Assembly (NCBI GenBank): GCA_052034935.1
Contig: JBPOIB010000008.1
Location: 2,511-66,510, forward strand
Direction: 5' to 3'
Length of the DNA stretch: 64,000 nt
Origin: Candidatus Moraniibacteriota bacterium
GTDB lineage: Bacteria; Patescibacteriota; Minisyncoccia; Moranbacterales; UBA1568
Within the stretch, counting starts at the first letter, position 1; the number at the start of each line of letters is the position of its first letter. Position numbers and translations under genes: made by a program. Of this stretch, positions 17,764-42,297 are shown piece after piece. The notes under the pieces are model-generated. The model made no database searches, had not been told where the DNA came from, and saw only the letters and a list, made by a program, of their open reading frames with translations.

Positions 17764-17786
17764 AATATACCCCCAGAGGGTATATT
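17764..17786 (+). promoter_or_regulatory. Putative CsoR-family operator: perfect 9-bp inverted repeat AATATACCC-ccaga-GGGTATATT
   Basis: Lies 12 nt upstream of the csoR ATG. It has the C-rich/G-rich inverted-repeat form typical of CsoR/RcnR operators. Confidence 0.6.
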
Positions 17787-17797
17787 TATTTTCTCTT

Positions 17798-18082: not shown

Positions 18083-18092
18083 TTATAAAAAT

Positions 18093-19022: not shown

Positions 19023-19065
19023 CAAGACGTCATTTCCTTGCTATACTGGTAAAGTAAAAGAATTG

Positions 19066-19096
19066 AGAGCGGGTGAAAGCCCGTTTTCTTTTTTTA
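19066..19096 (+). terminator. Weak intrinsic terminator (AGAGCGGG-tgaaag-CCCGTTTT + T-tract)
   Basis: Short stem with G-U pairs, then TTTTCTTTTTTT. Confidence 0.4.
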
Positions 19097-19302
19097 CCGT
19101 CTGATCAAAAGAATCAGGTGAAAACAGAATACAAAAATAAAAAGAAACGCGTCACAACGCTTTCAAACCCATGGAATGGGTGTCCCTATTCCAGCCGGCT
19201 AGCGCCAATTGGCCCTGCCGCAAACCACAACACTACCGCCCTCGACATAAACTGCGTGGGCGGTTCATTGTTTTTGGAGTCAAAAGTAAGCACTTTTTCG
19301 GC

Positions 19303-19331
19303 TTGAAAAGAGGGGTCTTTCGCGGTATACT
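19303..19331 (+). promoter_or_regulatory. Sigma70-like promoter, TTGAAA-17-TATACT, upstream of murA
   Basis: Good hexamers with a 17-nt spacer, 8 nt before the murA ATG region. Confidence 0.5.
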
Positions 19332-19338
19332 CGGTTCC

Positions 19339-20601: not shown

Positions 20602-20610
20602 TCCCTCTCT

Positions 20611-21624: not shown

Positions 21625-21654
21625 CGACGCCATTTTTCACCTGACTGCTTTTCT

Positions 21655-22764
21655 ATGCGAATCGGTATCGATGCTTCCCGGGCTTTTCTGAAGCGGCGGA
21701 CGGGGATTGAAGAGTATAGCTATCGGGTCATCGAACATCTTCGGGATGAAATTCCGACTGAACAAGTTACGCTCTATGTTCAGAAGAGGCTCGTTTTTGA
21801 AAATGGGCGGCTCCGGTTCGTATGGCCCAGAATAGACTTTGAGATTCCCACGGCGTGGCGAGTAAAAGGGTTGTGGGCGCCACGGTTCTGGACTCAAGCG
21901 AGACTTTCACTTGAAATGCTTATCACTGCTCCTGATGTACTCTTCATCCCAGCGCATACCGTACCCGTGATCCATCCGCGGAAAACGATTGTGACCATTC
22001 ATGGCCTCGAGTACGAGTTTTCACCGGAGAGCTATAGCTTCTGGGAGCGTCTCTATATGCGACTGTCGATCCGCTACTCGGTCTTTGCAGCCAGTCAGAT
22101 CATTGCCGTCTCGGAAAATACGAAGCGAGACCTGATTCGGCTCTATGTCGTCCCGGAAGAAAAGATAAAAGTCCTCTACGAGGGATTCACCAAACCCCTA
22201 TTCGATAATCAGGCTACTGAAAAAAGAGCGACCCCCTACTTTTTCTTTGTTGGCCGCCTTGAGACGCGCAAGAATATCATCCGGGTAATTGAAGCTTTCG
22301 AAGTGTTCAAAACAAAAACTGGTTCGCTACATCAACTGATACTGGCGGGAAAGCCGGGCTATGGCTATGGGGTGATTCAAGAAAAGATTGGAGCCTCAAA
22401 ATATAAAGAAAATATTTGTGAAGTAGGCTATGTAAGTGAAGAAGAAAAGTGGCGACTGCTGAAAAATTCTGAAGCGTTCCTCTTTCCTTCGCTTTATGAA
22501 GGGTTCGGATTGCCAGTTATCGAAGCGCAGAGCGTGGGCGTCCCAGTGATTACTGCAAATACCTCGTCACTGCCAGAAATCGTCGGGGAGGGTGCGATAT
22601 TAGTCAGCCCGCCGAACGTTTCGGCACTAGCAGAAGCGATGGAAGAACTGGTCAAGAATCAAGCGAAAAGGGCTGATATAATAGACAAAGCGACCCGGAA
22701 TGCTGGTCACTTCAGTTGGGCACGTTGCGCTCGGGGGGTGGCCGATCTTCTCGTGGGGTCCTAG
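21655..22764 (+). CDS. GT4-family (GT-B) glycosyltransferase
   Basis: C-terminal [18 protein letters not shown] motif. Confidence 0.8.
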
Positions 22765-22823
22765 TGACGAGGCTCGTGCTCCCCGAGGACTACACTCACT
22801 GCACATAAATTCAATATTCAGAT

Positions 22824-23933
22824 ATGGTCGAGAATAAGTCTCAAAAAATAGCCTTGGCGCATGATTTCCTTCTTGCGTGGGGCGGAGCGGAGCGGACTTT
22901 CCGGGTCATGGCCGACATGTATCCCGAAGCACCGATTTATACGCTTTTAGCGGACAAGGATTTTGCCGCAAAGCATTTTCCTGGTCGTGAGATTCGGACT
23001 TCATTTCTTCAAAAACTGCCACGCTGGCTCCGCCGGCATCACCGTTTTCTTCTGCCGCTCTACTCGGTCGCGGTTGAAGCAATCGATCTCCGTGATTTTG
23101 ACTTGGTCGTTTCAAGCTCGGGAGCCTGGATGAAGGGGCTCATTACGCGGCTTCATACGCGCCATATCGCCTACCTCCATTCGCCGATGCGCTATGTTTG
23201 GGACAGTCAAGAGCGGTATCTGCGCGAGATTGGGAGAGAGAAAAGCCTCGTTGTCCGGATGATTCTTTCGTATCTTCGGGTTTGGGACCGCCAGTCAGCA
23301 GAGCGCCCCGACCGCTTGATTGTCAATTCTCTGTTCACTCAGAAACGCGTAGAGAAATACTATCGCCGGGATTCGGAAATCATTTCGCCACCAGCTGGCG
23401 TACTCAGTGAGACCGCTGAATTAGATAGTGAGAAGCCGAAGGAATATTTTCTCGTTGTCGCTCGGCTGACTCGATCAAAACGGGTCGACGCTGTGATTGA
23501 AGCATTCAATCGGCTTCAACTCCCGCTTCTTGTTGTTGGGACCGGTCCTGAAGAGCGGTCGCTCAAAGAAATTTCTGGTCCGACTGTCCGCTTCGCTGGA
23601 GCGGTGAGTGATGAAAAACTCGTTGACTGCTACCAGCGAGCACGAGCCGTCATTCAGCCAAGTGAGGAGGACTTCGGTATGGTTATCGCGGAGGCATTCT
23701 CTTTCGGTGTGCCAGCAATCGCTCTGGGGAGCGGAGCGGCAAAAGAATTCATCCAGCCAGGAGTTACGGGCGAACTCTATATCGGGGAAACGGCCGAAAT
23801 GATTGCTGACGGCGTGCGTCGATTTCTCGAACGAGAGGAAAAATACCAGTCATCCGTAATACGCGAGCGAGCGGTGGGATATGATAAAGAGGTTTTTATT
23901 GAGAAAATGCAGTGCTTCATACATGGAAACTAA
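22824..23933 (+). CDS. GT4-family (GT-B) glycosyltransferase
   Basis: C-terminal EEDFGMVIAEAFSFGVPAIA motif. Confidence 0.8.
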   Translation: MVENKSQKIALAHDFLLAWGGAERTFRVMADMYPEAPIYTLLADKDFAAKHFPGREIRTSFLQKLPRWLRRHHRFLLPLYSVAVEAIDLRDFDLVVSSSGAWMKGLITRLHTRHIAYLHSPMRYVWDSQERYLREIGREKSLVVRMILSYLRVWDRQSAERPDRLIVNSLFTQKRVEKYYRRDSEIISPPAGVLSETAELDSEKPKEYFLVVARLTRSKRVDAVIEAFNRLQLPLLVVGTGPEERSLKEISGPTVRFAGAVSDEKLVDCYQRARAVIQPSEEDFGMVIAEAFSFGVPAIALGSGAAKEFIQPGVTGELYIGETAEMIADGVRRFLEREEKYQSSVIRERAVGYDKEVFIEKMQCFIHGN

Positions 23934-24804
23934 GGAATCAGTAGCTATCTGCGGGCATAGTGATGTCCGCGTGTCGCTCGAGCGGATCGCACGAGTAGCG
24001 AATCCTCCCCAGAGCTTCCTTTTTTCTGGGCCGAAGCATCTCGGCAAGTCACTGGTCGCTCGGGAATTTGCTGGAAGATTGATTGGTACGCCCATTTCTC
24101 AAGGTGTTTTCCATCCCGATCTGCTCATCCTCGATGAGGCTCATGATGATTCTGACGATCAGACCGCGGCACTCTCAGTCGAAAAAGTCAGAGAGATGCA
24201 ACTTTTTTTATCCCGTTTTCCAGAGAAAGGCCGTTATCGGGTCGTCTTGATTGATAATGCTGAACGTCTGACAAAATCAGCAGAAAATGCGTTGCTCAAG
24301 GCGCTGGAAGAGCCGAATACATCGTCGGTTATCATCCTCGTCTCAGCCCATCCCGGGAAGCTTCTACCGACTGTCCGTTCACGCCTCTTTCCGGTCGCTT
24401 TTTCTTTGCTCGCGCCCGAAGAGCTGCAGAGATTCTTTCCCCGAGCCGCTCATCTACCAGAATTCTTCTTCTCCCTTGGTCTGCCCGGACTCGTAAAACA
24501 GGCTGTCGACGAGCCTGAAGCATTCGATGTGACGAAGGGACAGCTGAGGGGGCTGTTTCAGCTTTCTCGGCTTTCCTGGGCTGAACGAATCACGCTCGCT
24601 GAGCAGTTGGCTGCAGCGCCTGAGACAATCGAGGATATTCTCGATATCTGGCTCATCGGACTCTCTCGCCGCCAGAATCTATCGGAGAATCGCTCCCGGA
24701 CAGAGGCTCTTTTCCTTGAGAGAGTGATCGAAACGATTGATTTCATATCGAGCCATCAGGGAAATCCCCGACTTTCGATGGAGCGACTTTTCACTTCACT
24801 CTAA
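23923..24804 (+). CDS. holB: DNA polymerase III delta-prime subunit
   Basis: FSGPKHLGKS P-loop-like motif, LIDNAERLT and SRLFPVAF motifs. The start overlaps the previous stop by 11 nt. Confidence 0.7.
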   Translation: METKESVAICGHSDVRVSLERIARVANPPQSFLFSGPKHLGKSLVAREFAGRLIGTPISQGVFHPDLLILDEAHDDSDDQTAALSVEKVREMQLFLSRFPEKGRYRVVLIDNAERLTKSAENALLKALEEPNTSSVIILVSAHPGKLLPTVRSRLFPVAFSLLAPEELQRFFPRAAHLPEFFFSLGLPGLVKQAVDEPEAFDVTKGQLRGLFQLSRLSWAERITLAEQLAAAPETIEDILDIWLIGLSRRQNLSENRSRTEALFLERVIETIDFISSHQGNPRLSMERLFTSL

Positions 24805-24819
24805 ATTCCGAGAACGAAC

Positions 24820-25734
24820 ATGTTTACGCCGAAGAAAAACGATCGTCGAACGATTTTCAAGAAGGCGATGCTCGTGCGCGAGAAGCGGGCTCCGCTCCGC
24901 CGGTCGGTGACTGAAAAAACACCGCTACTTTCGCTGTGGTCGGCCATCTTCTTGTGGTCTTCATTCGGGATCGTCACTGGACATATGCTGTTTTTTTCGC
25001 CGGTTCTTTCGGTAGAAACGGTCGAAGCACGTGGTGAGAGTATTCTCCCGCTTTCTGAATACGAAGAGTTCGTGAGACGATCCATTGAAGGTCGGTATCT
25101 TTCTGTTTTGCCGAAAAACAATTTCTTGCTCGTGCCCGTCCGATCGATTGAAGACGAACTGCGACGTCAGTATCCGAAGCTGTCGCGAGTCTCGGTCCAA
25201 CGGACATTTCCGTCAACGGTTCGTATATTCATCGACGAGGATCCACTTCTTCTGCTCTGGTGCTCCGGCGGACCGTGTTATGGTCTCCGCGACGGCCGGT
25301 CAATAACATTGCCGACAGCTGATGATTCACGTTACGACCAAGTCAGGCTTTCGGTTGTCGATGAGAGTGCGCTCCCAGTGACAGCAGGAGAGAATCTTCC
25401 TGTTAATGACTATCTCTCTAGTTTCAGCTTTTTTTTCCACGAGTTGCCAGCGATTCTGCCGATCCGGGTCAGAAATCAGTCGTCCACTCCGTCGCGTCAC
25501 TCGAACGAGCTCGTATTCTCGACTGATGAAGGATGGCGAATTCACATCGCGACTGATCGGCCGGCTGAATCCAGTCTCCGTTCGCTCCAGCTTTTTCTTG
25601 ATGAATATACCAAGGATCATCCTGATCGGACCAACTTGGCATGGATCGATCTCCGGGTCGAGGGAAAGATTTTCTTTGCTGATAAGAGCGCTCCTTCGGA
25701 AGAAGCTCTTCTGAAAGAAGAGAAAAAAGACTGA
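24820..25734 (+). CDS. ftsQ: FtsQ/DivIB-like cell-division protein (TM + POTRA)
   Basis: N-terminal basic tail, one TM helix and a POTRA-like beta-alpha pattern. Confidence 0.55.
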   Translation: MFTPKKNDRRTIFKKAMLVREKRAPLRRSVTEKTPLLSLWSAIFLWSSFGIVTGHMLFFSPVLSVETVEARGESILPLSEYEEFVRRSIEGRYLSVLPKNNFLLVPVRSIEDELRRQYPKLSRVSVQRTFPSTVRIFIDEDPLLLLWCSGGPCYGLRDGRSITLPTADDSRYDQVRLSVVDESALPVTAGENLPVNDYLSSFSFFFHELPAILPIRVRNQSSTPSRHSNELVFSTDEGWRIHIATDRPAESSLRSLQLFLDEYTKDHPDRTNLAWIDLRVEGKIFFADKSAPSEEALLKEEKKD

Positions 25735-29466: not shown

Positions 29467-31980
29467 ATGGGTGAGCGTGGATTGTTACCTGATGCTAGTT
29501 CCGATTTTGCTAAGGGTTCGCGTGTTGAACGTGGCCGTACCCATGAAAAAACTGAAGCGGCCAAGCGCGCCGGAGTGTCCGGTCAAACCGTGCATCGTCG
29601 AGGTTTTATTCCCGTGGCAGCTGCTGAACAAAAACTGGAAAATGCGGGTGAAAAAGCCCTTAGACCACTGCTGGAGGATATCGAAGAGAAGGTTAATCGA
29701 CTGACGCAGGTCGCAGTTTGGCTTGAAGGCGAGGGTATATCAATGCAAAGCGAATATGAGGGGGAGAAAATGTCCCTTCTTCGTTTCATTGCCAATAGCT
29801 TTAGGGCGGCTAAAGATAACGCCGGGCCGTATCTCGAAGATGCAACTAATACATTGGTTGAGACCACAGACTTTCAGGGAGATAAAGAAAAAATTGAAGA
29901 GATTCAGGATCGGTTTGTCCAACTGCTCGAAATTTTAAAGGACCAAGTCGCTAGTCTTGAGTCTGCCACAGGAGAAGATCATCGTGATGTCCCTGCGGAA
30001 ATCAAAGCGCTCTTGAGGGAATCGGCCCCAGCTGAACCGCCGGAGGAAGCTCGGGATTCAACCGAACCAGCAGACTCCCTGGCCGCTGATCCCGCACCAG
30101 AATCAGGACCGGGTGCGGAGGCCGAAGCGAAGTTTGCCGAGCTCGAGAATAGTGTTCAGAAATGGCAGAGCATACGTGGGCGTATAACTGACCTTGCCAA
30201 AGGAACTGCTTTCGACGATGCGATGCGTAGTCTCCCGGCGCCCGATTTTGCGAAGCACCATAAATCGGAAGAGGCAGCGAAGGTGATCAGGCTCTGGAGA
30301 AGACTCCTTGCCCAAGGGAAAAAACCGGATGAGGAGCTTCAGACGAAGATCGAGGCGCTCGAGCAGAATTTGGCCAAGATGATTCCAGCAGGAGAAACAC
30401 TACTAGCTTCGCTCGAGGCTGCGCAGGGCGGTGGAGGAAAAGAGGGTCAGGAGGCGCCCGTTCGCTTCGCTGATTATGATCGAGATGAATTACTCGAAGA
30501 GTTCGAAGGGCAGAACAATCGCGCCAAAATTATCCGCTTGCAAGCAGCACATAAGTCTTTGCGGTTGATGGTTCAAGAGGTGGTCCACTTGGGCGGTTGG
30601 AAAGAACTGAGTGCAGCGGTAGCGAATCTACCGGGCAAAGAGCTGATTCGTAAGGGCAAGCGAGAGCAAAAAGAAAGTGAGTTGCGTGATCTCTGGCAGG
30701 CAAACCAGGAGAAGGGCGCACTGCCGGAGGATATCGATCTCAAGGCGCTCCTTCTCGAGTATCATGATGTGCTGGTGGCTGCGGAGGCCGTCCGGGAGAA
30801 GCTGCAAGCCAATCCGCCGAAAGAGATTGCCCGTAGCGAGCGAGCTGAGGGGGTAACGGAGAATCCTGGACCCGCGCTTGAGGCGGAGCTTCAGGAAAAA
30901 TGGCGGGCGATGCGGGGAAATCCGGAAGCGAAAGTTGCGGCGGTAGAAACATTGCTCGCGGAATGGAAAGAGGTGAGCGAAACGATTCGGCAGTTTTCTG
31001 ATGAGACTCGGGTGCGAAGCGATATCGTCGGCAGCGGTTTGGAGCCACGCAAGTTCGAGAAAATATTCGCTTCAGCTGAAAATGAAAAGCAAGTCGAAGC
31101 AAGGTTAGAGGTGATTCGGAAAAACATGGAAGCGAATCCTGCCTTAAGCGACGAAGACGCTGGGTTTTTGACCGCTAATTTCCATAACTATCATCAGCTC
31201 ATCGCAGCTGCCAGATCAGTCGTCCGTGAACGAGAACGAGAGACGGCAGTGATGGCGGCTGAAGAGGTAGCCGAGGACAATCCGGAAAATGATCCAACAC
31301 CGAAAGAGAAGTTTCTTCAGGCGAATGAGCTCATCACACGTTGGCGGGAGCTTTGCGATGAATTTGGAGTGATACGACTCCGAAAGGCCATTCGGAAGAA
31401 ATATCCAAGAGAAATGGAATTGCCTGTTGTCCCGGACATTGACGCCTGGCTTGAGAAGCATCGGGATCTGAAAGCGTGGCGGGGGCGCTCGGCGCAGCGG
31501 AATCAGGCTCGCCTGGATGCTCACCTGGTAGATCTTGTCGGCTTAGTTAAGGATGCCGAGCTCGTGGCGGCTGATATCCGTTCGCGAAGGGCCGAGAAAA
31601 TCGCTGCAGACAAAAAAGAAGCTGCGGAACCAGAGACGAGGGGAAATGTCACTGTTCTTGCGACTGGACGAATAATTGAAAGCGATGAACAGATGACGGC
31701 TTGGGAAAAGCTCGATTCGGATAAGGCCAAGGAGTTTAAGCGTCTCGTTTCCATGAATGAGTTCAATGATTTTCAGGGGCGACTGAGGGCCAAGCTCTCT
31801 GAAAAAGGTATAACGAATTCAGTGGACCGTCTGCGGATCGCCCAGGTGGCACTCGAGCAGTTCATGCCCGGGCATATTCGCAAGCTCGCAAAAAAAGGTG
31901 ATTGGAATATCGAGATTACTGATGATGAACTTGAAAAAGTGTTCATGGTAGGTTTGAGAAAAAACCTTCTTGTCTCATAA
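29467..31980 (+). CDS. Large (837 aa) acidic, alpha-helical/coiled-coil hypothetical protein; first gene of the giant-protein/T4CP operon
   Basis: Long ORF in coding-like composition. No TM segment and no recognisable domain. The start codon is uncertain. Confidence 0.6.
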   Translation: MGERGLLPDASSDFAKGSRVERGRTHEKTEAAKRAGVSGQTVHRRGFIPVAAAEQKLENAGEKALRPLLEDIEEKVNRLTQVAVWLEGEGISMQSEYEGEKMSLLRFIANSFRAAKDNAGPYLEDATNTLVETTDFQGDKEKIEEIQDRFVQLLEILKDQVASLESATGEDHRDVPAEIKALLRESAPAEPPEEARDSTEPADSLAADPAPESGPGAEAEAKFAELENSVQKWQSIRGRITDLAKGTAFDDAMRSLPAPDFAKHHKSEEAAKVIRLWRRLLAQGKKPDEELQTKIEALEQNLAKMIPAGETLLASLEAAQGGGGKEGQEAPVRFADYDRDELLEEFEGQNNRAKIIRLQAAHKSLRLMVQEVVHLGGWKELSAAVANLPGKELIRKGKREQKESELRDLWQANQEKGALPEDIDLKALLLEYHDVLVAAEAVREKLQANPPKEIARSERAEGVTENPGPALEAELQEKWRAMRGNPEAKVAAVETLLAEWKEVSETIRQFSDETRVRSDIVGSGLEPRKFEKIFASAENEKQVEARLEVIRKNMEANPALSDEDAGFLTANFHNYHQLIAAARSVVRERERETAVMAAEEVAEDNPENDPTPKEKFLQANELITRWRELCDEFGVIRLRKAIRKKYPREMELPVVPDIDAWLEKHRDLKAWRGRSAQRNQARLDAHLVDLVGLVKDAELVAADIRSRRAEKIAADKKEAAEPETRGNVTVLATGRIIESDEQMTAWEKLDSDKAKEFKRLVSMNEFNDFQGRLRAKLSEKGITNSVDRLRIAQVALEQFMPGHIRKLAKKGDWNIEITDDELEKVFMVGLRKNLLVS

Positions 31981-31995
31981 TGAAAGATATTCCGA

Positions 31996-34900
31996 ATGGA
32001 AAACGAAGCTATGCCCGATAAAGATGGAGTCGTGCCGCCGGAGGCTGAGTCTCCGAAGCTACTCGATAAAGCGACAATTGAGGCCATAGGAGCGGAAATC
32101 GCTCTGGAGATTTCCGCTGCAAAAGAACCGGAAAAGGCAGCGAAGCCTGAAAGCGGGTTTTCGGCGGAAGCACTTGAACGCCAGCGCCTTGTTTTTGACA
32201 CGCTCGAGAGCCAGGCGGGGGCTTGGCGGGAACGGATTTCAGCTATTGCAAGTAGAAAAGACCTGGATGCTGTCACGCGGTCGGCGGCTAGTAATGGGAA
32301 GTACACGAGGGTTCCCGGTTTTGTCGTGGGAAATGCCTTGATAAGGCTGCTTCGCGATAACGCGATTACGGACAGTGCCGAGATTGCGGTTATCAAAGAA
32401 CGGGCGTATGAGCTGCAGTCGGAGCTGGATACTCCTTATCTCGCAAAACAGGCAGAGTTCTATCCGACCTCACCGGCAGCCAAAGTTGCGTCGACGGCAG
32501 AAGCTGATCCTCAAGAGGGCTGGATATCGAGGACCAGAGAATTCTCTATTCCGCTCGCAAAAGATTTTCCGTCTGATGGGGTTCGATATGAAACCTTCGA
32601 TGGCAGGAGTTATCTGATCGTCAAGAGAGGGAGCCGGTATCATATCGATGGCCCGGGAATCGAGGGTGGTAGCGCTATCTCGCTGAAAGAAATACATGAG
32701 CGTGCCGAAGCGGAAGGCTGGCGACGGTCAAAGAAGGAGAGTGCAAGTGCGGCTCGGTCTCAAGGGGTTCAAGCCTCTCAGCTTCCTGATCCGGTACCCG
32801 TGCCAGAAACTGGGGCTGGTAATAAGACTGAAACATTGGGTGATATTACCGAACGTCTTAGCTTTCTCCGAAAGGGAGAGGGTCTACGTTATACGGGTCG
32901 AAATAATCAGCGATATGTCATTACCCGAGTTTCTGACCAGGAAGTATACCGTGTCGAGAGTCTTGATGAAGGAGATGATGGCGTGACGAGGCTGCATCAC
33001 ATCAAAGAGTTAGCCGGCTATATATTTGAAAATAATTGGCGATTCCGTGGGAAAAATAGAGTGGAAAGCGGTTCTGGTATGTCTCCAAAGGAGTTGCCAG
33101 TATCAGATGACCGCGGAGAAGTGCCGTTTAAAATTGAGAAGCGGCTCACCAGTCTCAAGCCTGACCGGGAGCTCGTCTATGAGGATGAATCAGGCGCTGC
33201 TTTTTCAGTTTCGAATCCATATGGAAAAGATGTTTTTAGTCTCCGCCATCCAGACGACACGCTGACCATGCATTACATTCGGGATTTGGTTAATGACATT
33301 CGTGAAAAAAAGTGGAAATTCAAGCGAGCAAGGAACCTCGCGGCGAGATCCGGAGAAGTTGCTGTTCAGGGTGTAGAGAGTTCAACCCATATCCTGGGGA
33401 CTGAAGCTCTCAATCAGTCGGCTCAACCAGCTGAAGCTGGTGAATCAGGAAAGGTACGAGAAATGATGACTGCTCTTGCTGAGGGCACAGTTATTAGTTT
33501 CATTAGTCGTTCTGGGGAACCAGTCACCGTCGAAAGGCGCAGTAACCAATATCAGATCACAAGTGCGGATGGCAACTCCTCTGGTTTTACCTATGATCTC
33601 GAACATATCACCAATATTGCAGTAGAGGAGGGATGGAAAGACATGCGTGGTGCGGCTGCCGAAAGCGTGGAGTCGGATTTTCTCAAGGATGGTGAGACGG
33701 GAGAATATACCATGGACAATTCGCCGATGGGATCAGTCCGTCGCTTTAAACGCGTGGGAAATTTCTATCATCAAATCCGTCCGGAGGATGGAAGTATCGG
33801 TAATCCGTATTCCGAGGCTCAAATTCAGCAGCTTGCCAAAGAGGTGGGGCTAAAGCGAGTGGTACCGGAAACTCCGGAGTCCATGGCTGAGGCAGCGAGA
33901 AAAGCGGAGGCACTTGCGGCGCTTGACACCGAGGTGGTGAAATTCCGGACTGAAGCCGACGCTGAACGGTCAGCCTATATCGCCAAGAAAGAAGATCAGA
34001 CGGCCGCCAAGAAAAGGCTCAGTAGAATTTTTCGCGATATCGGATTCGGAGAGAATCTCGAAGAAGAAGTCTTGGATTATAAGCAGTACTACGAAAACGC
34101 CCTTTCGCGCTGGAAGAATGCTGAACTTGAGCGGTTGCGCCAACAAGCACTCGGACGGGAAGAGCTTCATGGGGCGATGGCGGTGCTCGTCCGCGAGTTC
34201 GAATTCGAAGAATCGGAACGCCTCTATGAAGGGGAGCGAAGGGCCCGGTTGGATCGTGTCTCGAAGTCCGTTTTTGAGCGAGCCGATGAGTTATGGAGGG
34301 AATCTAAGGACGGCATCAGCAAAGAAGACGGATCGATGCGAGTAGAAGTCGCCTGGTCTCGGTTGAAATATGTCATGGGTGCACTCGGTATCGCGAGTCA
34401 GGCTGGGCTCGAGAAGGCGGTTAAGGGAGTTGATACTCTCGGCGAGCGTTACAACCAGCTTGCTCGAGGAAAATATGGGAAGCTTATCCTCGGGGCGACC
34501 ATCTTCGGTGCGGGGGCTGTCGTGGCTGGGACAGGTGGCACTGCACTGGCGGGGGTGCTCGCCGCCAAGCGAGTGGCCGCTGGCGCCGGTTTCGCGGTCA
34601 CGGCGAGAGGCGTGATGGATCGGTATGCCGATAAAAGTCGTGAGAAGGAAAAGGCGAATATCATGAACGAGGACCGGGTTAAGAAAGTGATGCGTGATAT
34701 TATCATCCCCACGCTCGATGGAAGGCTCGAGGGTAAGGGTGGAATGTTGAATCTGGAAGCTCTGAGCGAGTATCTCGATAAGGAGGGTATCAAGAAAGTC
34801 CAGAGTAAAGCCCGCCGTCGGAGGATAGGCGAGGTTTTGCGTAAAGGCGGATCGTATGTGGCGGGCGCAGCTATCGGCGGTCTCATACCGAGGGAGTGGT

Positions 34901-36129
34901 TTGATGGAGTGAGTTTCGGGAGCGCCGCACATGCAGCGACTGCTGGTGAGATTGCTCAGCCGGTAGCGGAAGCCGCCTCGGCTCCGTTGCCTCTTGCTTC
35001 CGCGCCGGTGGCTACTCCCGATAGTCCGCTTGCGGGTGGGCCTGGCTCAGGTCCGTCGATTGCTGAGTCTTCGGCGGCAGCTGAATTGTTGAAAGATACC
35101 CAAGCAATACCTGCCCCAGCTGCGTTAGAGGCGCCAGAATCTTTGAAGGATACGCATGTTATCCCAGCCCCGACTGAAGTATCGGAAGGGGGTACGGAAG
35201 GATTGCTCAAGTCATACGAGGTGAAGCCGGGGGATTCGATTTGGAAGATTGCGACAAAATCGGTCGAGGGAGTGCCAGATATGGACAAGCGTTCGAGTGG
35301 GCGTTTCGCGAAACTGCTCGCTCTGAGGCTCGAAGAGAAATTGACCGTAATCGATCCGAAACTCGCCGAAGCGGCTGGATTCACACCGGATGTCGATGGC
35401 CGTTTCACCCCGGACCACATCCTCGCTGGGGCAAAGCTCGAACTTGGCAAACTTCTTTCTGTCGAGGAGATGGCGAAGCTTGTCGAAGAGGCGAAGAGTG
35501 ATAGTCCGATTGCAATCCCGACTGAGTCGGCTCCGGTCGCTGCCGAGGTGGTGCCCTTAGCTGCTCAGTCCTCGACCGAGGCAGAACAGGTCGTAATTGA
35601 AGAAGCACGCGTCGCCGCTCAGGTGCCGTCGGTGAGTGTTGAAGAGCGGTCGGATATACTGAGCGTGTTCGAGCAGCATGCATCTCAAGAGCTCATCAAG
35701 CCGGATGGGAACGTGATGAAATACATCGAGACCTTGCCACGTGAAGAACAGGAGAAGCTTTTCCGTAATTTCAAAAAACTTTCGGTCGAGCTCTTTCAGA
35801 CGAATGAAGTGATGGGAAGCGAGACCTATGAAATGCGCTATGATCCGGCTGTTCATCCAGAACTTGCCAAGACAAACATGGCGACCATCCTGACCGATCA
35901 TAAGCTGCTCGGAAAGAATCCGTTCGTCTCGTATGATCGTTTCCGGAATCCGCTGCATGGTTCGCAGATGGAGGAAATAGCAAAATTTTCGAAAGCAGTA
36001 GCGAAGGTGTTCGGCCCGACGGCCGCAGCGCCGAAGGCGGTTGAATCTGTCCAGGAGTATGTTCTCCGAATGGCGGCGATTGCCGGCAATCAGCAGGTAA
36101 AAATTCCGGGTTTCCGTATGGTAAACTAA
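31996..36129 (+). CDS. Giant (1377 aa) hypothetical protein with five internal repeats of about 65 aa, a Gly-zipper hydrophobic segment and a LysM-like C-terminal region
   Basis: Repeats lie at about aa 180-625, each ending ...EGW(R/K). Hydrophobic segment GKLILGATIFGAGAVVAGTGGTALAGVLAAKRVAAGAGFAV at about aa 828-871. LysM-like YEVKPGDSIWKIA at about aa 1074. Confidence 0.65.
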   Translation: MENEAMPDKDGVVPPEAESPKLLDKATIEAIGAEIALEISAAKEPEKAAKPESGFSAEALERQRLVFDTLESQAGAWRERISAIASRKDLDAVTRSAASNGKYTRVPGFVVGNALIRLLRDNAITDSAEIAVIKERAYELQSELDTPYLAKQAEFYPTSPAAKVASTAEADPQEGWISRTREFSIPLAKDFPSDGVRYETFDGRSYLIVKRGSRYHIDGPGIEGGSAISLKEIHERAEAEGWRRSKKESASAARSQGVQASQLPDPVPVPETGAGNKTETLGDITERLSFLRKGEGLRYTGRNNQRYVITRVSDQEVYRVESLDEGDDGVTRLHHIKELAGYIFENNWRFRGKNRVESGSGMSPKELPVSDDRGEVPFKIEKRLTSLKPDRELVYEDESGAAFSVSNPYGKDVFSLRHPDDTLTMHYIRDLVNDIREKKWKFKRARNLAARSGEVAVQGVESSTHILGTEALNQSAQPAEAGESGKVREMMTALAEGTVISFISRSGEPVTVERRSNQYQITSADGNSSGFTYDLEHITNIAVEEGWKDMRGAAAESVESDFLKDGETGEYTMDNSPMGSVRRFKRVGNFYHQIRPEDGSIGNPYSEAQIQQLAKEVGLKRVVPETPESMAEAARKAEALAALDTEVVKFRTEADAERSAYIAKKEDQTAAKKRLSRIFRDIGFGENLEEEVLDYKQYYENALSRWKNAELERLRQQALGREELHGAMAVLVREFEFEESERLYEGERRARLDRVSKSVFERADELWRESKDGISKEDGSMRVEVAWSRLKYVMGALGIASQAGLEKAVKGVDTLGERYNQLARGKYGKLILGATIFGAGAVVAGTGGTALAGVLAAKRVAAGAGFAVTARGVMDRYADKSREKEKANIMNEDRVKKVMRDIIIPTLDGRLEGKGGMLNLEALSEYLDKEGIKKVQSKARRRRIGEVLRKGGSYVAGAAIGGLIPREWFDGVSFGSAAHAATAGEIAQPVAEAASAPLPLASAPVATPDSPLAGGPGSGPSIAESSAAAELLKDTQAIPAPAALEAPESLKDTHVIPAPTEVSEGGTEGLLKSYEVKPGDSIWKIATKSVEGVPDMDKRSSGRFAKLLALRLEEKLTVIDPKLAEAAGFTPDVDGRFTPDHILAGAKLELGKLLSVEEMAKLVEEAKSDSPIAIPTESAPVAAEVVPLAAQSSTEAEQVVIEEARVAAQVPSVSVEERSDILSVFEQHASQELIKPDGNVMKYIETLPREEQEKLFRNFKKLSVELFQTNEVMGSETYEMRYDPAVHPELAKTNMATILTDHKLLGKNPFVSYDRFRNPLHGSQMEEIAKFSKAVAKVFGPTAAAPKAVESVQEYVLRMAAIAGNQQVKIPGFRMVN

Positions 36130-36144
36130 GTTCAGAATAAAAAT

Positions 36145-36450
36145 ATGGACATTGACTATTCGAAAATTGAACAAGAACTGATTGAAGAGCTCGCGCTTTC
36201 GGGGCTACCAAAGCCAAAACAGGAAGAGCTCCTCGGTCGGATGCTCGAAGCACTCCTGAAGCGGATTTTCATGGAGACGATGGAACGGCTTGGTGAAGAT
36301 GGGATGAAGGAGTATGAAGCTTTAATTGAAGCCAAACCGACCGAAGAAGCTGTCGGAAAATTTCTCGAAGATCGGATTCCAGAATATACGGTATTTATTG
36401 AGGGTATCGTGGAACAGTTCAAGAAAGACATAAAAGCGGTGGCCGCCTAA
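36145..36450 (+). CDS. Small acidic helical hypothetical protein (101 aa)
   Basis: Tightly packed ORF inside the operon. No recognisable domain. Confidence 0.5.
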   Translation: MDIDYSKIEQELIEELALSGLPKPKQEELLGRMLEALLKRIFMETMERLGEDGMKEYEALIEAKPTEEAVGKFLEDRIPEYTVFIEGIVEQFKKDIKAVAA

Positions 36451-36454
36451 CCCT

Positions 36455-36871
36455 ATGTCAATGTGGGAATTTTTTTCACGGAAAAAAGAGGCGGCGGCCG
36501 TGGTGGCTTCGCCCGCGAATATAGCTGAAACGAAGGTTTCAGAAGGTAAGCCTGATTTTGAGAGAGTTTCCGAACAAACAGTCGAGAAGGTAAACGAGAA
36601 GTATGCCGCAATACTTTCTCAGAGTGCGATTTCCCAGTCGGCACCAGTAGCCGCTCAGGTAGCTACGGATGCTGACCTGTTGAGCCATGCCGTAGATGCG
36701 GAAACCCGGGTTAATCAGCTCGTCGAGCTCGCTCAGGTAAAGGGAGTCGCTCATGCGGTCGAAGTCGCCCGAAAAATGAATGATCTCTACGTCCTTGATA
36801 CGATGCATGATGAGCTTGCGGATAAGCTCTATGATGCCCTCAGGGCAAAGGGGCTCATTCTCGGGGAATAG
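36455..36871 (+). CDS. Small hypothetical protein (138 aa)
   Basis: Tightly packed ORF, 4 nt after the previous stop. No recognisable domain. Confidence 0.5.
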   Translation: MSMWEFFSRKKEAAAVVASPANIAETKVSEGKPDFERVSEQTVEKVNEKYAAILSQSAISQSAPVAAQVATDADLLSHAVDAETRVNQLVELAQVKGVAHAVEVARKMNDLYVLDTMHDELADKLYDALRAKGLILGE

Positions 36872-36894: not shown

Positions 36895-39393
36895 ATGTTT
36901 TCGGAGTTCGATCTCAATGTCGTATTGCTTCCGCTCGCGTATCTCTCGGGCGGATTAGCTTTTCTTTCTGGTCTTTTTCTTGTAGTCAAAGCGTTCCTCG
37001 TCGTCCGTTTCGAAGTTGCTCAATCGCTCAATCTCGATCTTGAAATTGTTCAGGTAAGCAAAAAGAAAGTATCAGAGGGGGCAGTCCACACAGCTGAAGA
37101 ATGGCGGGAGGAGATTCGGGCAATGGAGCAGCTCCTCGCCTCACTCTCCTCGCTGAAGCGTCATCTACCTTTTTGGAAGCGTCTTTTCTTCGAGGCACCG
37201 CATATCGTCTTCGAAATCGCGAACCCTTCATCGAAGGAGGAAATATTCTTTTATCTCTCCGTTCCCAAGCATTACCGTGAGAATGTTGAAAAGCAGATCC
37301 ATAGTTTCTTTCCTCATGCCTCGATCGAAAAGGTTCCTGACTATACCATTTTCTCTCCTACTGGCGAGACGGCCGTCGCACTTCTCGAGCTCTCAGCGAG
37401 TCATGCCTTGCCCTTGAAAACATATAAGACACTCTCAGTCGATCCATTGAACGAGATTTCTAATGCTCTCTCGAAGCTTGAAACGGTTGCCGAGGGAGCG
37501 GCTATTCAAATTATTCTGGCGCCGGCCCCCAATGGTTGGCGGCGAGGAAGTCGTCAGATTGCTCAAAGAATGCAGGAGGGGAAGCGGTTAAAAGACGCGC
37601 ATCCTGAAACATTTACTTCCATGGTTGGGAAGTCGGCGCTGGAGGGAATGAACCGAGTCGTCCTTCAGCAGGATATGAAGGCGGGTAAGCTCGAAGAGAA
37701 AAAGCCGGTTGTCTTGACGCCCGAGGAACAGGAGCTCGTCAAAACAATCGACGCGAAAGCGAGCCAGTCAGCCTTTTCCGTAAATATCCGCCTTCTCGCC
37801 TCGGCAAGCACAAAGGCTCGCGCTGAAAGTATCCTCAGTCATCTGGAGAATGCTTTTTCCCAGTTCGAGAATCCGGAAGTGAACAGCTTCCGTGTTAAAA
37901 AGCGTATCTCATCGAAAAAAGCAGCCTATCATTATATTTTTCGAAACTTCGATCCCGATTCGGCCATGGTCCTCACTTCGGATGAGGTCGCGAGTTTCTT
38001 TCATTTCCCGATCTCGACTACTGAGACACCAAAAATTAAGTGGTTGAAAGCCGGTGCTGCCCCGCCGCCGATTAATATCCCGAAAGAGGGATTGTTGCTT
38101 GGCTATAACGATTACCGCAACACGAAGACAGAAATTCGTATCACGGATAATGACCGCCGCCGCCATATGTATGTGGTCGGACAGACTGGTGTCGGAAAAT
38201 CGAATTATCTCCAAGAAATGGCAAAGAAAGATGCGCGTTCTGGTAAAGGGTTCTGCTTCATCGATCCACATGGTGATGCAATCGAAGATATCCTCACTTC
38301 GATCCCGAAGGAACGCGCGGAAGACGTCATTGTCTTCGATCCATCCGATACGGCTCGCCCGATTGGAATCAATATGCTCGAATTCGATCCGAATCATCCC
38401 GAGCAGAAAACCTTCGTCATCAATGAGATGATTGGCATTTTCGATCAGTTGTACGATATGAAGGCGACCGGCGGCCCGATGTTTGAGCAATATATGCGCA
38501 ACGCCATGTTGCTTATCATGGAGCATCCAGAAAGCGGGTCGACCTTGATGGAGATCCCGAAAGTGCTCGCTGATGAAGAGTTCCGGCGCTACAAACTCGA
38601 GCATTGCGCCAATCCAATCGTCCGTGATTTCTGGCTGAAAGAGGCGGAGAAAGCTGGTGGCGAAGCGGCACTTGCGAATATGGTCCCATACATCACTTCA
38701 AAGCTGACGACATTTATTTCGAACGATATGATGCGGCCGATTATTGCGCAGCAGAAAAGTACACTCAATTTTCGTGAGCTGATGGATAGTGGAAAAATCG
38801 TCCTCATTAACCTCTCCAAGGGAAAGATTGGCGAGATTAATGCTCGCCTCCTCGGTATGGTCGTCGTCGGAAAGATACTGATGGCGGCCCTTTCCCGGAC
38901 TGATCAACCGGAAGCAGAACGGCGAGATTTTTATCTCTATCTCGACGAATTCCAGAATGTGACAACGACTTCGATTGCGCAGATCCTGTCCGAAGCGCGC
39001 AAGTACAAGCTCGTGCTCATCCTCGCTCACCAGTTCATCGCCCAACTCAAAGAGGAGATTTCGAAAGCGGTCTTTGGCAATGTCGGCTCGCTCATCTCCT
39101 TCCGGGTTGGTCCGGAGGATGCTGAATTTCTCGAGAAGCAGTTCTCTCCGGTCTTTAGCGCTCACGATATCGTGAATGTCGACAACTACCAAGCGTTTGC
39201 TCGCCTCCTCATGAATAATGAGCTGACCAAACCATTTAATATGAAAACCTATCCGCCGACTTCAGGCGATCAAGAAGTGGCCAATGCACTCAAGGAACTC
39301 TCGCGCCTACGCTACGGCCGCGACGCAAGGATCGTGAACCAGGAAATCATATCCCGCATGCATCTTGCTGAGGGGACTCGGGCGAGAACTTAA
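36895..39393 (+). CDS. VirD4/TraG/TrwB-like type IV coupling protein (T4CP) ATPase with N-terminal TM helices
   Basis: Two N-terminal TM helices. Walker A VVGQTGVGKS, T4CP-type FIDPHGD, and a TraG-D_C-like YLYLDEFQN...ILAHQFIAQL...NVGSLISFRVGPED. Confidence 0.7.
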   Translation: MFSEFDLNVVLLPLAYLSGGLAFLSGLFLVVKAFLVVRFEVAQSLNLDLEIVQVSKKKVSEGAVHTAEEWREEIRAMEQLLASLSSLKRHLPFWKRLFFEAPHIVFEIANPSSKEEIFFYLSVPKHYRENVEKQIHSFFPHASIEKVPDYTIFSPTGETAVALLELSASHALPLKTYKTLSVDPLNEISNALSKLETVAEGAAIQIILAPAPNGWRRGSRQIAQRMQEGKRLKDAHPETFTSMVGKSALEGMNRVVLQQDMKAGKLEEKKPVVLTPEEQELVKTIDAKASQSAFSVNIRLLASASTKARAESILSHLENAFSQFENPEVNSFRVKKRISSKKAAYHYIFRNFDPDSAMVLTSDEVASFFHFPISTTETPKIKWLKAGAAPPPINIPKEGLLLGYNDYRNTKTEIRITDNDRRRHMYVVGQTGVGKSNYLQEMAKKDARSGKGFCFIDPHGDAIEDILTSIPKERAEDVIVFDPSDTARPIGINMLEFDPNHPEQKTFVINEMIGIFDQLYDMKATGGPMFEQYMRNAMLLIMEHPESGSTLMEIPKVLADEEFRRYKLEHCANPIVRDFWLKEAEKAGGEAALANMVPYITSKLTTFISNDMMRPIIAQQKSTLNFRELMDSGKIVLINLSKGKIGEINARLLGMVVVGKILMAALSRTDQPEAERRDFYLYLDEFQNVTTTSIAQILSEARKYKLVLILAHQFIAQLKEEISKAVFGNVGSLISFRVGPEDAEFLEKQFSPVFSAHDIVNVDNYQAFARLLMNNELTKPFNMKTYPPTSGDQEVANALKELSRLRYGRDARIVNQEIISRMHLAEGTRART

Positions 39394-39915: not shown

Positions 39916-42297
39916 TTACTGTATCCGCCAGACGGCGACAGCACCGTGGCTGGATGTGAGAAGTTCAGTCCCATCGTTCGATACGGTGATAGCCTCAGTC
40001 CCGCTGAATGATTCATGGAAGTATTGGTTGATAAGCACTCCTGAGAGAGACCAGCGAAGGATGCGTCGGCTGCCTCGGTCGAGAGCGAAGACATCACCAT
40101 TCTTCGGGTTGAAAGAAAGAGTGTCCGTCATGACCGGTGCGGCGCTTCCTGAAAAAACAACACCGGTGTTTTTTCCGCGCGTGAAAATGATAGGGCGACC
40201 GTCATTTCCTACCAGGGCGATGTTCTCATAGACACTCATCGCCGATTTTTCTTTCAAATTGAGAGTCTCTTTGGACCAGGTAATCGCGTCACCGAAGCCG
40301 CCTTCAGCTCGAGGGAAGCGATAAATTTTTCCGGCTGTCTGGTCGAGAACATAGAGGTAGGTGAGGTAAGAGCCGAGAGCGTCGATGTTTGTTCCGGAGG
40401 CGAGGGGGAGAGTATTCAATTCAAATTTTTTGTTCGTGACGCTATAGAGATAGAGCGCTCCGGATTCGCTGAGGAGGAATAGCGCATCGAGGTCATCCAT
40501 GCCAGTAGCGAGACGGATTGTTTCCGGAGCATTCGTTGATTCTTGAGTCTTCAGGTTCGTGATGCGCTTTCCAGTGATGAGAAAGGGAACATCATTAATG
40601 TTCGTAAGCGCCACGGTCGCTGCGTCACCAATCGGCGAGAGTGTTCGGTCACCACTGAGGCGGATTGACAATGGTTCATCGGCCGGAGGAAAAACCTTCG
40701 CTTCGGCCGTTGCGGGGGTATTTTCGACGGCAGGGGCAGCTGTCTGCTCGGACACCCCAGTCTCGTCAGTTGAAAAGAGAAATAGACTGAGGGCGAGCAT
40801 GATAACGCACCCGGTGATAAGAAAAAGCCAGCCTTTCGTTGACAAGTTCTGGATGAGGGGAGGAATCGCGCTGAAAAGTCGACTGAGGAGATTAGCTATT
40901 TTTCTAACCATGCGATGCCAGGCCTCCTTTCCGGTTCCGAGGGCGCCCATACTGATTGTACGGACGCGGAGATGGGTTGCCCGTGCTTTTTCACCGAGAG
41001 ATACATAGCGAGAGCGGACAGAATCGGACGGCTCGGATATCGTGATAGCCGGGGCTGGGGTATTTGTCGGAGGGTCTATTTCAGTGACAGGAATCGATCG
41101 GTTTTCTGATTCCCTTACTTGGCGAGCTTCTCGGAAAGCCTGCCATTTCAACTGAATTGATCGCTTGCTGAGGCGCGTACGCCGCTCGGCCGCGCGCTTC
41201 AGAACACTGAGCTGCGAGTATAATTCATCAACCAGGAAGCCGGACTCTTTGCTAATCCGGCGGAAAGTCTTTTTAGTGCTGGCCTGGGCCGCTCGCGCGT
41301 GCAGATCGAAGTGATGTCGGAAGACATCCCAGGACTCTTTCCAGTGTGTATCTGGCGTACGGAATGATTCGTCGTTCGAGGCCTGAACGTAAATGTGGCC
41401 AGTTTTCGCATCAGTGTATTCTGTTTTCGGAACTTCCCCTTGAGAAGAAGGTTCCTTTTTTGAGGGGCTTGATTCATGTTTGGACTGGAGCGCTTCAGAG
41501 AACGGCTTTCCGCTCCAAACGTTTTCAAGGCTAATGGGTGGTTTTTTCGATTCTTTTCTCGCCGGTGCAGGTTTGATGACCTCGACCGGGGCGGAACAGA
41601 GGAGAATGGCTGCTGCTGCGACCGGCAACTCATTGATAAGGGCGGTACGGAGAAACTGCTCGAAGCCGGCTGGTCCGAGGCGACTCAGACTTCGCGCGAG
41701 TTCTCCAGGTGAGAAAAGTGACCATATTGATGGGGAAAAGGCAATCACGAGGTCGCCGTCGAAAAGTTCGCCGCTGGAGACTTCAGTGAAGGTTTTGAGT
41801 GGATGCGGCTCGCTGCCGGTATCGGCAAGCCCTTGACTGATCGATTGGAATGAGTCATTTCTGGCGAGATAGAGTTCGCCTTCTCCGGTAGCGGAGAAAT
41901 GAAGAAGGTTCTCATTGACCGCGCCAATCGCTCCATGGAGATGGCCGAGCCAGGAGACATTGCCATGTTTGACTATTTCGGCTAAGGCGACATTGATCTT
42001 GTGAAGAGCGGCATCAAAACTATCAGTCGGACTCCGTCGCGGATTGGCAAAGTATTCTTTCTTGGCGACGGAAGTGAGAAAATTGACGATGTAGGCAGCG
42101 TCTTGATCATGGATCTCTACCTCGAAAAAACCGAAAAGCGTCCCGAGGCTCTTGCCCGCGACGTTATCGCTCGCGTAATGGAAAGCTATGATGTAGGGCT
42201 CTTGCGCACGCCCAGCCCCCACGACGATTTCTTTGTATGACTTTTCGAGTACGGCCAGGGACTGCTTTTTAGCCCGGTCATCGATGCGTTGACGCAT
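39916..42297 (-). CDS. Membrane protein with N-terminal PP2C-like (SpoIIE/PPM-type) domain, one TM helix and a large extracytoplasmic C-terminal domain
   Basis: GEGELYLARNDSFQSIS and DGDLVIAFSPSIW resemble PPM motifs. TM segment WLFLITGCVIMLALSLFLF. The functional call is tentative. Confidence 0.5.
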   Translation of the reverse strand: MRQRIDDRAKKQSLAVLEKSYKEIVVGAGRAQEPYIIAFHYASDNVAGKSLGTLFGFFEVEIHDQDAAYIVNFLTSVAKKEYFANPRRSPTDSFDAALHKINVALAEIVKHGNVSWLGHLHGAIGAVNENLLHFSATGEGELYLARNDSFQSISQGLADTGSEPHPLKTFTEVSSGELFDGDLVIAFSPSIWSLFSPGELARSLSRLGPAGFEQFLRTALINELPVAAAAILLCSAPVEVIKPAPARKESKKPPISLENVWSGKPFSEALQSKHESSPSKKEPSSQGEVPKTEYTDAKTGHIYVQASNDESFRTPDTHWKESWDVFRHHFDLHARAAQASTKKTFRRISKESGFLVDELYSQLSVLKRAAERRTRLSKRSIQLKWQAFREARQVRESENRSIPVTEIDPPTNTPAPAITISEPSDSVRSRYVSLGEKARATHLRVRTISMGALGTGKEAWHRMVRKIANLLSRLFSAIPPLIQNLSTKGWLFLITGCVIMLALSLFLFSTDETGVSEQTAAPAVENTPATAEAKVFPPADEPLSIRLSGDRTLSPIGDAATVALTNINDVPFLITGKRITNLKTQESTNAPETIRLATGMDDLDALFLLSESGALYLYSVTNKKFELNTLPLASGTNIDALGSYLTYLYVLDQTAGKIYRFPRAEGGFGDAITWSKETLNLKEKSAMSVYENIALVGNDGRPIIFTRGKNTGVVFSGSAAPVMTDTLSFNPKNGDVFALDRGSRRILRWSLSGVLINQYFHESFSGTEAITVSNDGTELLTSSHGAVAVWRIQ

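Follow-up and report, generated by a model that had tools for sequence, protein, structure and literature searches.

A new small domain family with a predicted four-strand-plus-helix fold, repeated in a giant, likely membrane-anchored protein of a Moraniibacteriota bacterium

The GW modules of Listeria InlB and Ami are SH3-like domains of about 80 amino acids (aa). In type IV secretion, coupling proteins select the substrates. Patescibacteria are thought to live attached to hosts, and a survey of this group counted 5,713 VirD4-like homologues in 2,918 genomes, only 148 of them near virB4, and left their role open (PMC12102498). Here, we studied a stretch of 64,000 nucleotides from a Candidatus Moraniibacteriota bacterium (contig JBPOIB010000008.1, positions 2,511 to 66,510), which we call the window and whose numbering is used throughout. 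On its forward strand, an open reading frame (ORF) of 1377 aa (31996..36129) carries five divergent repeat units and lies in one same-strand cluster with a gene for a VirD4-like ATPase. The units constitute a new small domain family, without a name in the families searched. Like GW modules, they are repeated on linkers and share a conserved Gly-Trp dipeptide. However, they measure only ~55 aa, end in a predicted C-terminal helix, show no SH3-like barrel in the model and are likely cytoplasmic. The ATPase of the window, in turn, resembles the orphan type IV coupling proteins (T4CPs) of Patescibacteria in that it bears T4CP-type Pfam domains and that the scan of window ORFs turned up no virB4. 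Neither the two giant neighbours of this ATPase nor the present module is described in the survey (PMC12102498).

The original prediction, made from the sequence alone, had cited five tandem repeats of about 65 aa, each ending in an (E/N)xW(R/K) motif, over a part of the protein that corresponds to aa 179-625. Unit borders were set after aligning the 1377-aa protein with its homologues. All five modules were present, and are called R1 to R5 from the N-terminus on. R1 spans aa 194-246 (32575..32733), ends in EGWRR and is conserved in the homologues P0002, P0003 and P0004. R2 (aa 295-352, 32878..33051) ends in NNWRFRG and R3 (aa 391-444, 33166..33327) in KKWKFKR; the two form a subtype of their own (R2/R3 subtype, A2) with the signature hh.I..l...I.e..WkF+, and were placed by Smith-Waterman comparison and hhalign. 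R4 (aa 497-551, 33484..33648) ends in EGWKD. R5 (aa 569-623, 33700..33864) ends in VGLKR, with Leu in the place of Trp, and is strongly conserved in P0002 and P0003; it starts at GEYTMDN (aa 569), that is, earlier than had been drawn. Thus, there are indeed five divergent copies, but their core is 53-58 aa long (~55) and not 65. They are not in tandem in the strict sense either, because linkers of 48, 38, 52 and 17 aa separate them and the spacing from start to start is 72-106 aa. The terminal motif was found as described in R1 (EGWR), R2 (NNWR) and R4 (EGWK) but not in R3 (KKWK) or R5 (VGLKR). The net charge of the units is about neutral, from -3 to +2, and their isoelectric points (pI) range from 4.8 to 9.3.

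The repeats are too divergent for BLAST: a self-BLASTP of the 1377-aa protein at E<=100 gave no off-diagonal match, and Tandem Repeats Finder found no repeat at the DNA level. Smith-Waterman comparison against 1000 shuffles gave significant scores for R2-R3 (z=8.5), R2-R4 (z=7.7), R1-R4 (z=5.9) and R4-R5 (z=3.8), and none for the remaining pairs, including R1-R3, R2-R5 and R3-R4. Since only some of the pairs were significant, the five units are linked transitively. Hidden Markov models (HMMs) made from one orthologous class of units saw the other classes weakly (p ~0.001-0.003). We also used an independent HMM, built from 10 units of seven distant proteins, with the window protein and three close relatives left out. 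It recovered R1 (26.9 bits), R4 (36.2 bits) and R5 (8.5 bits), each above all 1000 whole-protein shuffles, with R2 being marginal (p=0.057) and R3 missed. A profile of the R2/R3 subtype (six units) aligned end-to-end with a profile of 20 other units over 54 columns (hhalign probability 91%, E=1.1e-6). Membership in the new family thus comes through the independent HMM for R1, R4 and R5, and only through the subtype profile for R2 and R3. By all three routes, pairwise, independent HMM and profile-profile comparison, the likeness of the units exceeded shuffled controls.

The original prediction had also supposed a beta-rich module of unknown family, and both points were borne out. An AlphaFold2 model of R4, made with an alignment of 25 units, reached a mean predicted local distance difference test (pLDDT) of 88.5 and a predicted template-modelling score of 0.69. 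In the model, four strands (4-8, 14-20, 23-27 and 33-38) precede a helix (40-50), after which the chain is briefly extended at W-(K/R); the unit is therefore confidently predicted to be a four-stranded antiparallel meander followed by one helix. Conservation falls on an aromatic residue of strand 1, the Gly of the first turn, a K/R that closes strand 2, a Tyr of strand 3 that hardly varies, hydrophobic helix positions and the final E-G-W. Such a pattern would fit the motif of a structural core, in which the G-W-(K/R) that closes the helix probably packs the helix onto the sheet.

Searches of Pfam, NCBIfam, PDB sequence profiles and PDB folds gave no significant match for the unit. With the whole 1377-aa protein, Pfam returned at E<=1 only a sub-threshold LysM match, which lies outside the repeats. 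With 25 single units at E<=10, it returned three unrelated single-member matches, the best at E=0.07, and none to a GW/SH3-type family. The 1377-aa protein had no match in NCBIfam, PADLOC or PHROGs, and a reading of it as part of a defence system or phage was rejected for want of either a PADLOC or a PHROG match. When the unit, the N-terminal half or the C-terminal region was searched against PDB sequence profiles, nothing rose above chance level (matches were to HicA, the RpoN C-terminal domain, a zinc finger, centrin and, over its first 22 aa, a LytE LysM). A HicA/dsRBD-like unit was rejected in particular, as HicA (5yrz_B) matched at E=0.45 over 22 positions and was absent from the fold matches. 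Foldseek against PDB with the unit model gave nothing at E<=0.001, the best of the 50 matches listed having E 0.78, and no SH3, GW or InlB entry was among these 50. The top fold matches were the PH-like FERM F3 subdomain of IDOL (F3ab, 6qlz_A, probability 0.95, TMq 0.54 with the R4 model), a Mediator subunit (5n9j_Y, TMq 0.63) and the PB3 polo-box of PLK4. All of these, which are protein-protein interaction modules, have in common with the unit an antiparallel sheet followed by a helix. Yet, they are alike in topology only, with E>=0.78 over 37-53 columns that are part of larger domains and 7-10% identity. Among the predicted models of BFVD, the closest fold neighbours were stand-alone uncharacterised phage proteins of 56-70 aa, such as A0A4D6E287 (Gordonia phage GodonK) and A0A6G5Y961. 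These cover the whole unit (TM-score 0.77-0.83, root-mean-square deviation 1.5-2.0 Å, 56-58 columns), and show that four strands plus a helix can make up a small protein on their own. As they are single-domain predicted models matching at E 2e-3 to 2e-2 with 10-16% identity, common ancestry cannot be claimed for them.

To see how the units evolve, we compared the codons of the 1377-aa gene with those of L007, a 94%-identical relative for which DNA was at hand. The five units showed 8 non-synonymous and 32 synonymous differences, giving a ratio of non-synonymous to synonymous rates (dN/dS) of 0.065. Between the units, the linkers showed 29 and 18, respectively, with a dN/dS of 0.49 (Fisher p=9.5e-5 for the substitution counts). 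In this, the units act like folded domains under constraint, and the linkers like spacers with little constraint; the latter evolve fast and are presumably disordered. Positive selection on the units is rejected by their dN/dS. Over the whole gene, dN/dS was 0.22, the highest of the region, which shows it to be a coding gene under selection. In the linker that joins the LysM-like region to the C-terminal domain (both described below; aa 1156-1215, 35461-35640), 7 non-synonymous differences stood against 1 synonymous (dN/dS ~2.4), numbers too small to interpret.

The repeat-bearing protein aligned end to end with its homologues P0001-P0003. Its layout runs from an N-domain, through the five units on linkers, to a coiled-coil-like region; then come a Gly/Ala-rich membrane block, a basic loop, a short hydrophobic segment and an acidic Pro/Ala linker, and finally a LysM-like region and a conserved C-terminal domain. 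The N-domain (roughly aa 50-170, 32143..32505) is conserved and helical, with dense invariant alignment columns and the motif GKYT..PGFVVGN..LLRDNAI. It was the best-matching stretch in most matches of the exhaustive profile search reported below. A conserved lead-in to R1 follows (aa 171-193, 32506..32574), with DPxxxW and then S.T..FS.P.A..FP. The DPQEGW that had been noticed before the first repeat is there, at aa 171-176, and in the four closest homologues D171, P172 and W176 are invariant, together with S178, T180, F183, S184, P186, A188 and P192. Downstream of the units, a charged helical region (aa 626-827, 33871..34476) shows invariant columns and the conserved motif WKNAELERLR...REFEFEE, and its sequence pattern suggests that it is probably a coiled coil.

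As for the membrane, the original prediction had pointed to a Gly-zipper hydrophobic segment downstream of the units, and we indeed found a Gly/Ala-rich hydrophobic block with an internal KR at aa 830-874 (34483..34617; Kyte-Doolittle maximum 1.64). The block is conserved in six homologues with 42-46 aa and an N-flank of net +3/+4, and is likely a membrane hairpin of the Gly-zipper kind. It is followed by a basic loop (aa 875-950, net +7, 21 K+R) and by the short hydrophobic segment GGSYVAGAAIGGLIP (aa 951-965), together at 34618..34890 by hydropathy and charge. In the six homologues, the loop measures 75-80 aa, with net +2 to +8 and 18-21 K+R, and the sequence after GGSYVAGAAIGGLIP is net negative in five of the six. 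No signal peptide or hydrophobic segment was found at the N-terminus (Kyte-Doolittle maximum 0.88 in the first 60 aa); ~830 hydrophilic aa precede the first hydrophobic block, on whose N-terminal side all membrane-bearing relatives carry their units as well. By the positive-inside rule, the best fit would keep the N-terminus and the loop inside, on either side of the hairpin, and would place the LysM-like region and the C-terminal domain outside after one more crossing. It would also be conceivable that the hairpin is monotopic and that the entire protein stays inside. Under both readings alike, the repeats would most likely be cytoplasmic. Units of the R2/R3 subtype also occur in two paralogues devoid of any hydrophobic segment (P0008 and P0011), which points to cytoplasmic repeats as well. 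If any part faces the wall, it would be the C-terminal LysM-like region.

That region (aa 1071-1155, 35206..35460), reading YEVKPGDSIWKIA...ILAGAKLELGKL with a helical insertion of ~35 aa, had been called LysM-like in the original prediction. The resemblance is only sub-threshold, with 16.2 bits against a cut-off of 20.9. YEVKPGDSIWKIA matched positions 1-15 of the 43 positions of the LysM profile (PF01476), and a stretch of 22 aa matched a LytE LysM (E=0.01), whereas ILAGAKLELGKL resembles the last LysM strand by reading of the sequence. Unlike LysM, the motif is split by the insertion. An AlphaFold2 model of aa 1069-1377, made with 10 sequences, had a mean pLDDT of 74.7 and showed two folded regions joined by a disordered linker. 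Set beside the beta-alpha-alpha-beta fold of LysM, its LysM-like part (pLDDT 76-86) consists of a short strand, helices and strands at model residues 61-74, with the long helix inserted. Foldseek with this 309-aa multi-domain model returned no LysM structure from PDB and nothing at E<=0.001 (best E 0.81). "LysM-like" would thus be the most that can be said of aa 1071-1155. The conserved C-terminal domain (aa 1216-1377, 35641..36126) shows the motifs FQTNEVMG, NPLHGSQM and KIPGFRM in the alignments, belongs to no known family and is mostly helical in the AlphaFold2 model. Upstream of the LysM-like region, the acidic Pro/Ala linker holds a duplication, LKDTQAIPAP/LKDTHVIPAP (aa ~1031-1060, nt ~35086-35175), which had been noticed previously and is visible in the 1377-aa protein. 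It is shared by the window and P0001; P0002 and P0003 have a gap at the position of the second copy, so the duplication looks recent.

We then considered how widely the family extends. A word-indexed search found three relatives, P0001 (94% identity), P0002 (61%) and P0003 (47%), with full-length alignment. The same kind of search with the 25-unit alignment gave no protein match, which we read as the limit of a word index for a short profile and not as absence. An exhaustive profile search with aa 1-629 against 1.84 billion cluster representatives returned 22 proteins, one of them a false positive. The latter, P0014 (934 aa), has ~15 near-identical tandem copies of ~60 aa, gave 15 matched stretches, all via YYGLRPDG only, and is unrelated to the family; it looks like a translated DNA tandem repeat. 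The module family is tiny, with about 20 clusters. Position and copy number of the module vary among its members, with one unit in P0024, P0005, P0006 and P0007, three in P0002, four in P0003, P0004 and P0013, five in the window protein and at least six in P0019.

The type of unit varies as well. P0003 has an R4-like unit after R5, and in both P0002 and P0003 a helical unit stands in place of the R2-R3 segment. This helical unit is a building block of another family (P0016, P0018, P0020 and P0022), that of the gene immediately upstream, which encodes in the window a soluble protein of 837 aa with helical repeats (29467..31980), no Pfam family and no hydrophobic segment. The helical unit of the 837-aa protein reads W..LR.e.G...L..AIR...LP....i..W...h.....W.G. 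In the other direction, an HMM of R2+R3 matched P0013 (30 bits), P0008 (15.2) and P0011 (13.2), against a null maximum of 4.8, P0008 and P0011 being upstream-type proteins with units of the R2/R3 subtype. Likewise, the upstream-type proteins P0008, P0010, P0012 and P0021 carry, close to their C-terminal end, the N-domain of the 1377-aa protein. Since units, N-domain and helical unit are found in both gene types, the two adjacent giants share one pool of modules, and the unit is an independent domain that moves between them. The best explanation is a rapid turnover in the number and type of modules, by duplication and loss and by exchange with the upstream paralogue.

Putting these data together, the following picture can be proposed, in which we infer that the units are cytoplasmic and serve in docking, that the linkers are disordered, that the Trp has a structural role and that the ATPase is linked to the units at all. 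Folded units on flexible linkers would form beads on a string in the N-terminal, most likely cytoplasmic half, and the Gly/Ala-rich hairpin would anchor the giant protein in the membrane. The units would act as protein-protein docking modules, and the cytoplasmic arm would thereby become a multivalent scaffold or adaptor for an apparatus around the ATPase. We are largely confident in the structural part of this reading and in the identity of the units as a repeated new domain. Docking and the scaffold function are a tentative suggestion that we regard as rather doubtful, and the reading as a whole, that is, docking modules of a membrane-anchored cytoplasmic scaffold made of a repeated new domain, stands in our judgement at an even balance. 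The near-neutral charge of the units speaks for docking and weakly against binding of nucleic acids.

Other explanations have to be set against this one. That the likeness of the five stretches is a by-eye effect of compositional bias, with no repeated domain behind it, draws on the pairs R1-R3, R2-R5 and R3-R4, which are not individually significant, on single-class HMMs that reach only p ~0.001-0.003 across classes, and on the failure to find a repeat at the DNA level. It is hardly credible, and is refuted on present evidence, because the transitive links are significant (z up to 8.5), an HMM made from other proteins retrieves R1, R4 and R5 over 1000/1000 shuffles, the R2/R3 subtype joins the rest at E=1.1e-6, the AlphaFold2 fold is confident and purifying selection coincides with the units and not with the linkers. 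The original prediction had compared the repeats with those of adhesins or cell-wall-binding proteins. The units would then be extracellular binding modules of the GW, choline-binding or SH3b type, anchoring the protein to the wall or to a host surface. In favour of this, beta-rich units do recur between linkers, many of them with a final Gly-Trp; a LysM-like stretch and an acidic linker rich in Pro/Ala are found in the same protein; its gene diverges far more between genomes than the neighbouring ones, which is common for surface proteins; and a host-attached life fits what is thought of Patescibacteria (PMC12102498). This comparison was not supported, and we consider an extracellular role very unlikely. 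There is no signal peptide ahead of the ~830 hydrophilic aa, the units are always N-terminal to a block with a positive N-flank, and the R2/R3 subtype occurs in P0008 and P0011, which have neither membrane segment nor signal peptide. Moreover, the 25 units matched no wall-binding repeat in Pfam at E<=10, the modelled fold, a flat four-strand meander plus helix, is no SH3-like barrel, no wall-binding domain was among the 50 PDB matches listed, and a dN/dS of 0.065 leaves no diversifying selection on the units.

The ATPase suggests two further alternatives. Coupling proteins of the T4CP family select substrates, and both giant proteins, or parts of them, might be exported by the VirD4-like ATPase, their units acting outside or in a host cell. 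In support of such cargo, the giant genes diverge faster than the ATPase (25-45% identity versus 88-94%), modules shuffle between both of them, no VirB4 was found among the window ORFs scanned and most T4CP homologues of Patescibacteria are encoded away from virB4 (PMC12102498). The conserved hydrophobic hairpin, by which the 1377-aa protein looks resident in the membrane, the strong purifying selection on the units in the close comparison and the lack of VirB4/VirB6/VirB8-like channel components among the same ORFs nevertheless make export unlikely; nor did any secretion signal come to light, though no search aimed at one was made. By analogy with Ced or conjugation, the units might instead bind DNA or RNA and pass it to a HerA/FtsK-type ATPase in a device for uptake or transfer. 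The ATPase weakly matches NCBIfam TraD, CedD and CedB, far below the cut-offs, the units have conserved K/R residues where strand 2 ends and following the Trp, and non-significant echoes of HicA (E=0.45) and of the RpoN C-terminal domain (E=0.37) were seen. However, the overall character of the units is not basic (net charge -3 to +2, pI 4.8-9.3), they gave no significant match to any nucleic-acid-binding family or fold, and neither a relaxase nor another DNA-processing gene was found in the cluster, so that we hold such a role to be improbable.

Several points also weigh against the scaffold reading that we prefer. The alignment given to AlphaFold2 was made of the paralogous units themselves and R4 was the sole unit modelled; that R1, R2, R3 and R5 share its fold would follow from their homology. 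The topology is drawn from hydropathy and the positive-inside rule only, and with a 15-aa segment this weak, the C-terminal half may lie on either side. Docking to a binding partner is putative. Adjacency to the ATPase may reflect the shared ancestry of related genomes and not function, as neighbours that are 80-94% identical place all the loci in one narrow clade. Finally, the window otherwise carries envelope and division genes (MurA, MurD-like, MreB, FtsQ and PMT_2), and a role in envelope biogenesis independent of the ATPase would be possible.

Turning to the neighbourhood, the 1377-aa gene is followed by those for a 101-aa DUF5663 protein (Pfam 2.2e-7) and a 138-aa protein whose family was not recognised (36145..36871), an order kept in all related loci. 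L007 encodes a DUF5663 protein 100% identical to that of the window. Next comes the membrane-anchored ATPase of 832 aa (36895..39393), VirD4/TraD-like (T4CP, HerA/FtsK superfamily) by Pfam, and the last gene of the same-strand cluster in every locus. Pfam gave TrwB_AAD_bind (33.5 bits, cut-off 20.5), TraG-D_C (28.6, cut-off 22) and T4SS-DNA_transf (21.4, cut-off 20.1), and also DUF87. Matches to the NCBIfam TraD/VirD4 models were all far below their cut-offs, e.g. 37.7 versus 366, and we therefore call the ATPase T4CP-like, and not a confirmed T4CP. Its orthologues in L001 and L007 have an N-terminal DUF8128; no paper on DUF5663 or DUF8128 was found in the literature. The ATPase also matched over its whole length phrog_5156, an uncharacterised phage family (E=1.8e-92), and the defence-library model mad8 (2e-14).

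This gene order is shared, as far as the contigs reach, by seven related loci (L001 and L003-L008), four of them on named contigs of metagenome-assembled genomes. A contig scan with the C-terminal alignment gave four loci; the full-length alignment, for which N-terminal patterns were chosen, confirmed none. Three of the four named loci are labelled Candidatus Moraniibacteriota/Moranbacteria. The fourth, L005 (CAZGXN010000005.1), is labelled uncultured Bdellovibrionales, has the Moranbacteria gene order and neighbours 80-88% identical, and its contig is probably mis-binned or mislabelled. The conserved order begins with a glycosyltransferase gene, holB and an FtsQ-like gene, and with two PMT_2 genes on the opposite strand. 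It continues with the 837-aa-type, 1377-aa-type, DUF5663, ~138-aa and ~830-aa DUF8128/VirD4-like ATPase genes, RmuC being farther downstream. Identity to the window is 88-94% for the ATPase, 80-86% for the PMT_2 genes, 81-84% for RmuC and 73-84% for the DUF5663 protein. For the upstream giant gene it is 25-30% over part of the length in the four more distant loci, and 77% over the C-terminal 529 aa in L001. For the 1377-aa gene it is 36-45% in the C-terminal half, and the repeat region in the N-terminal half is not alignable. The two giant genes thus are islands of divergence in a conserved syntenic region when the window is compared with L001 and L003-L006. Opposite to the cluster, a 793-aa protein (39916-42297, reverse strand) has no match in Pfam, NCBIfam, PADLOC or PHROGs, and is 47-56% identical in all related loci. 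The rest of the window (including 5681-7144 and 16206-25734) encodes ComEC, a Mur ligase, a thioredoxin-reductase-like oxidoreductase, MurA, MreB, glycosyltransferases, holB, an FtsQ-like gene, RF and photolyase. Given the envelope and division genes around it, the cluster lies in an ordinary chromosomal context and not on an obvious mobile element.

A small domain repeated in a large protein is an ordinary kind of feature, and the function proposed for this one is putative. The large proteins of Moranbacteria-type Patescibacteria are, however, almost entirely unannotated, and we describe here a new domain family with a confident fold model, seen so far in two adjacent giant genes of these bacteria. 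The probable cytoplasmic location of the units corrects the first guess of surface modules. The cluster, with its two module-swapping giants, two small proteins and an ATPase, offers candidate partners for the VirD4-like ATPases that stand apart from virB4 (PMC12102498). One speculative and quite unlikely possibility is that the orphan VirD4-like ATPases widespread in Patescibacteria dispense with a VirB4 channel and act together with two fast-evolving giant modular proteins, whose shuffled beta4-alpha and helical units would be the substrate-recruiting platform or the cargo of a minimal envelope-spanning translocation device that would serve an epibiotic lifestyle. If this were true, the present repeat would be the first recognisable signature domain of that device.

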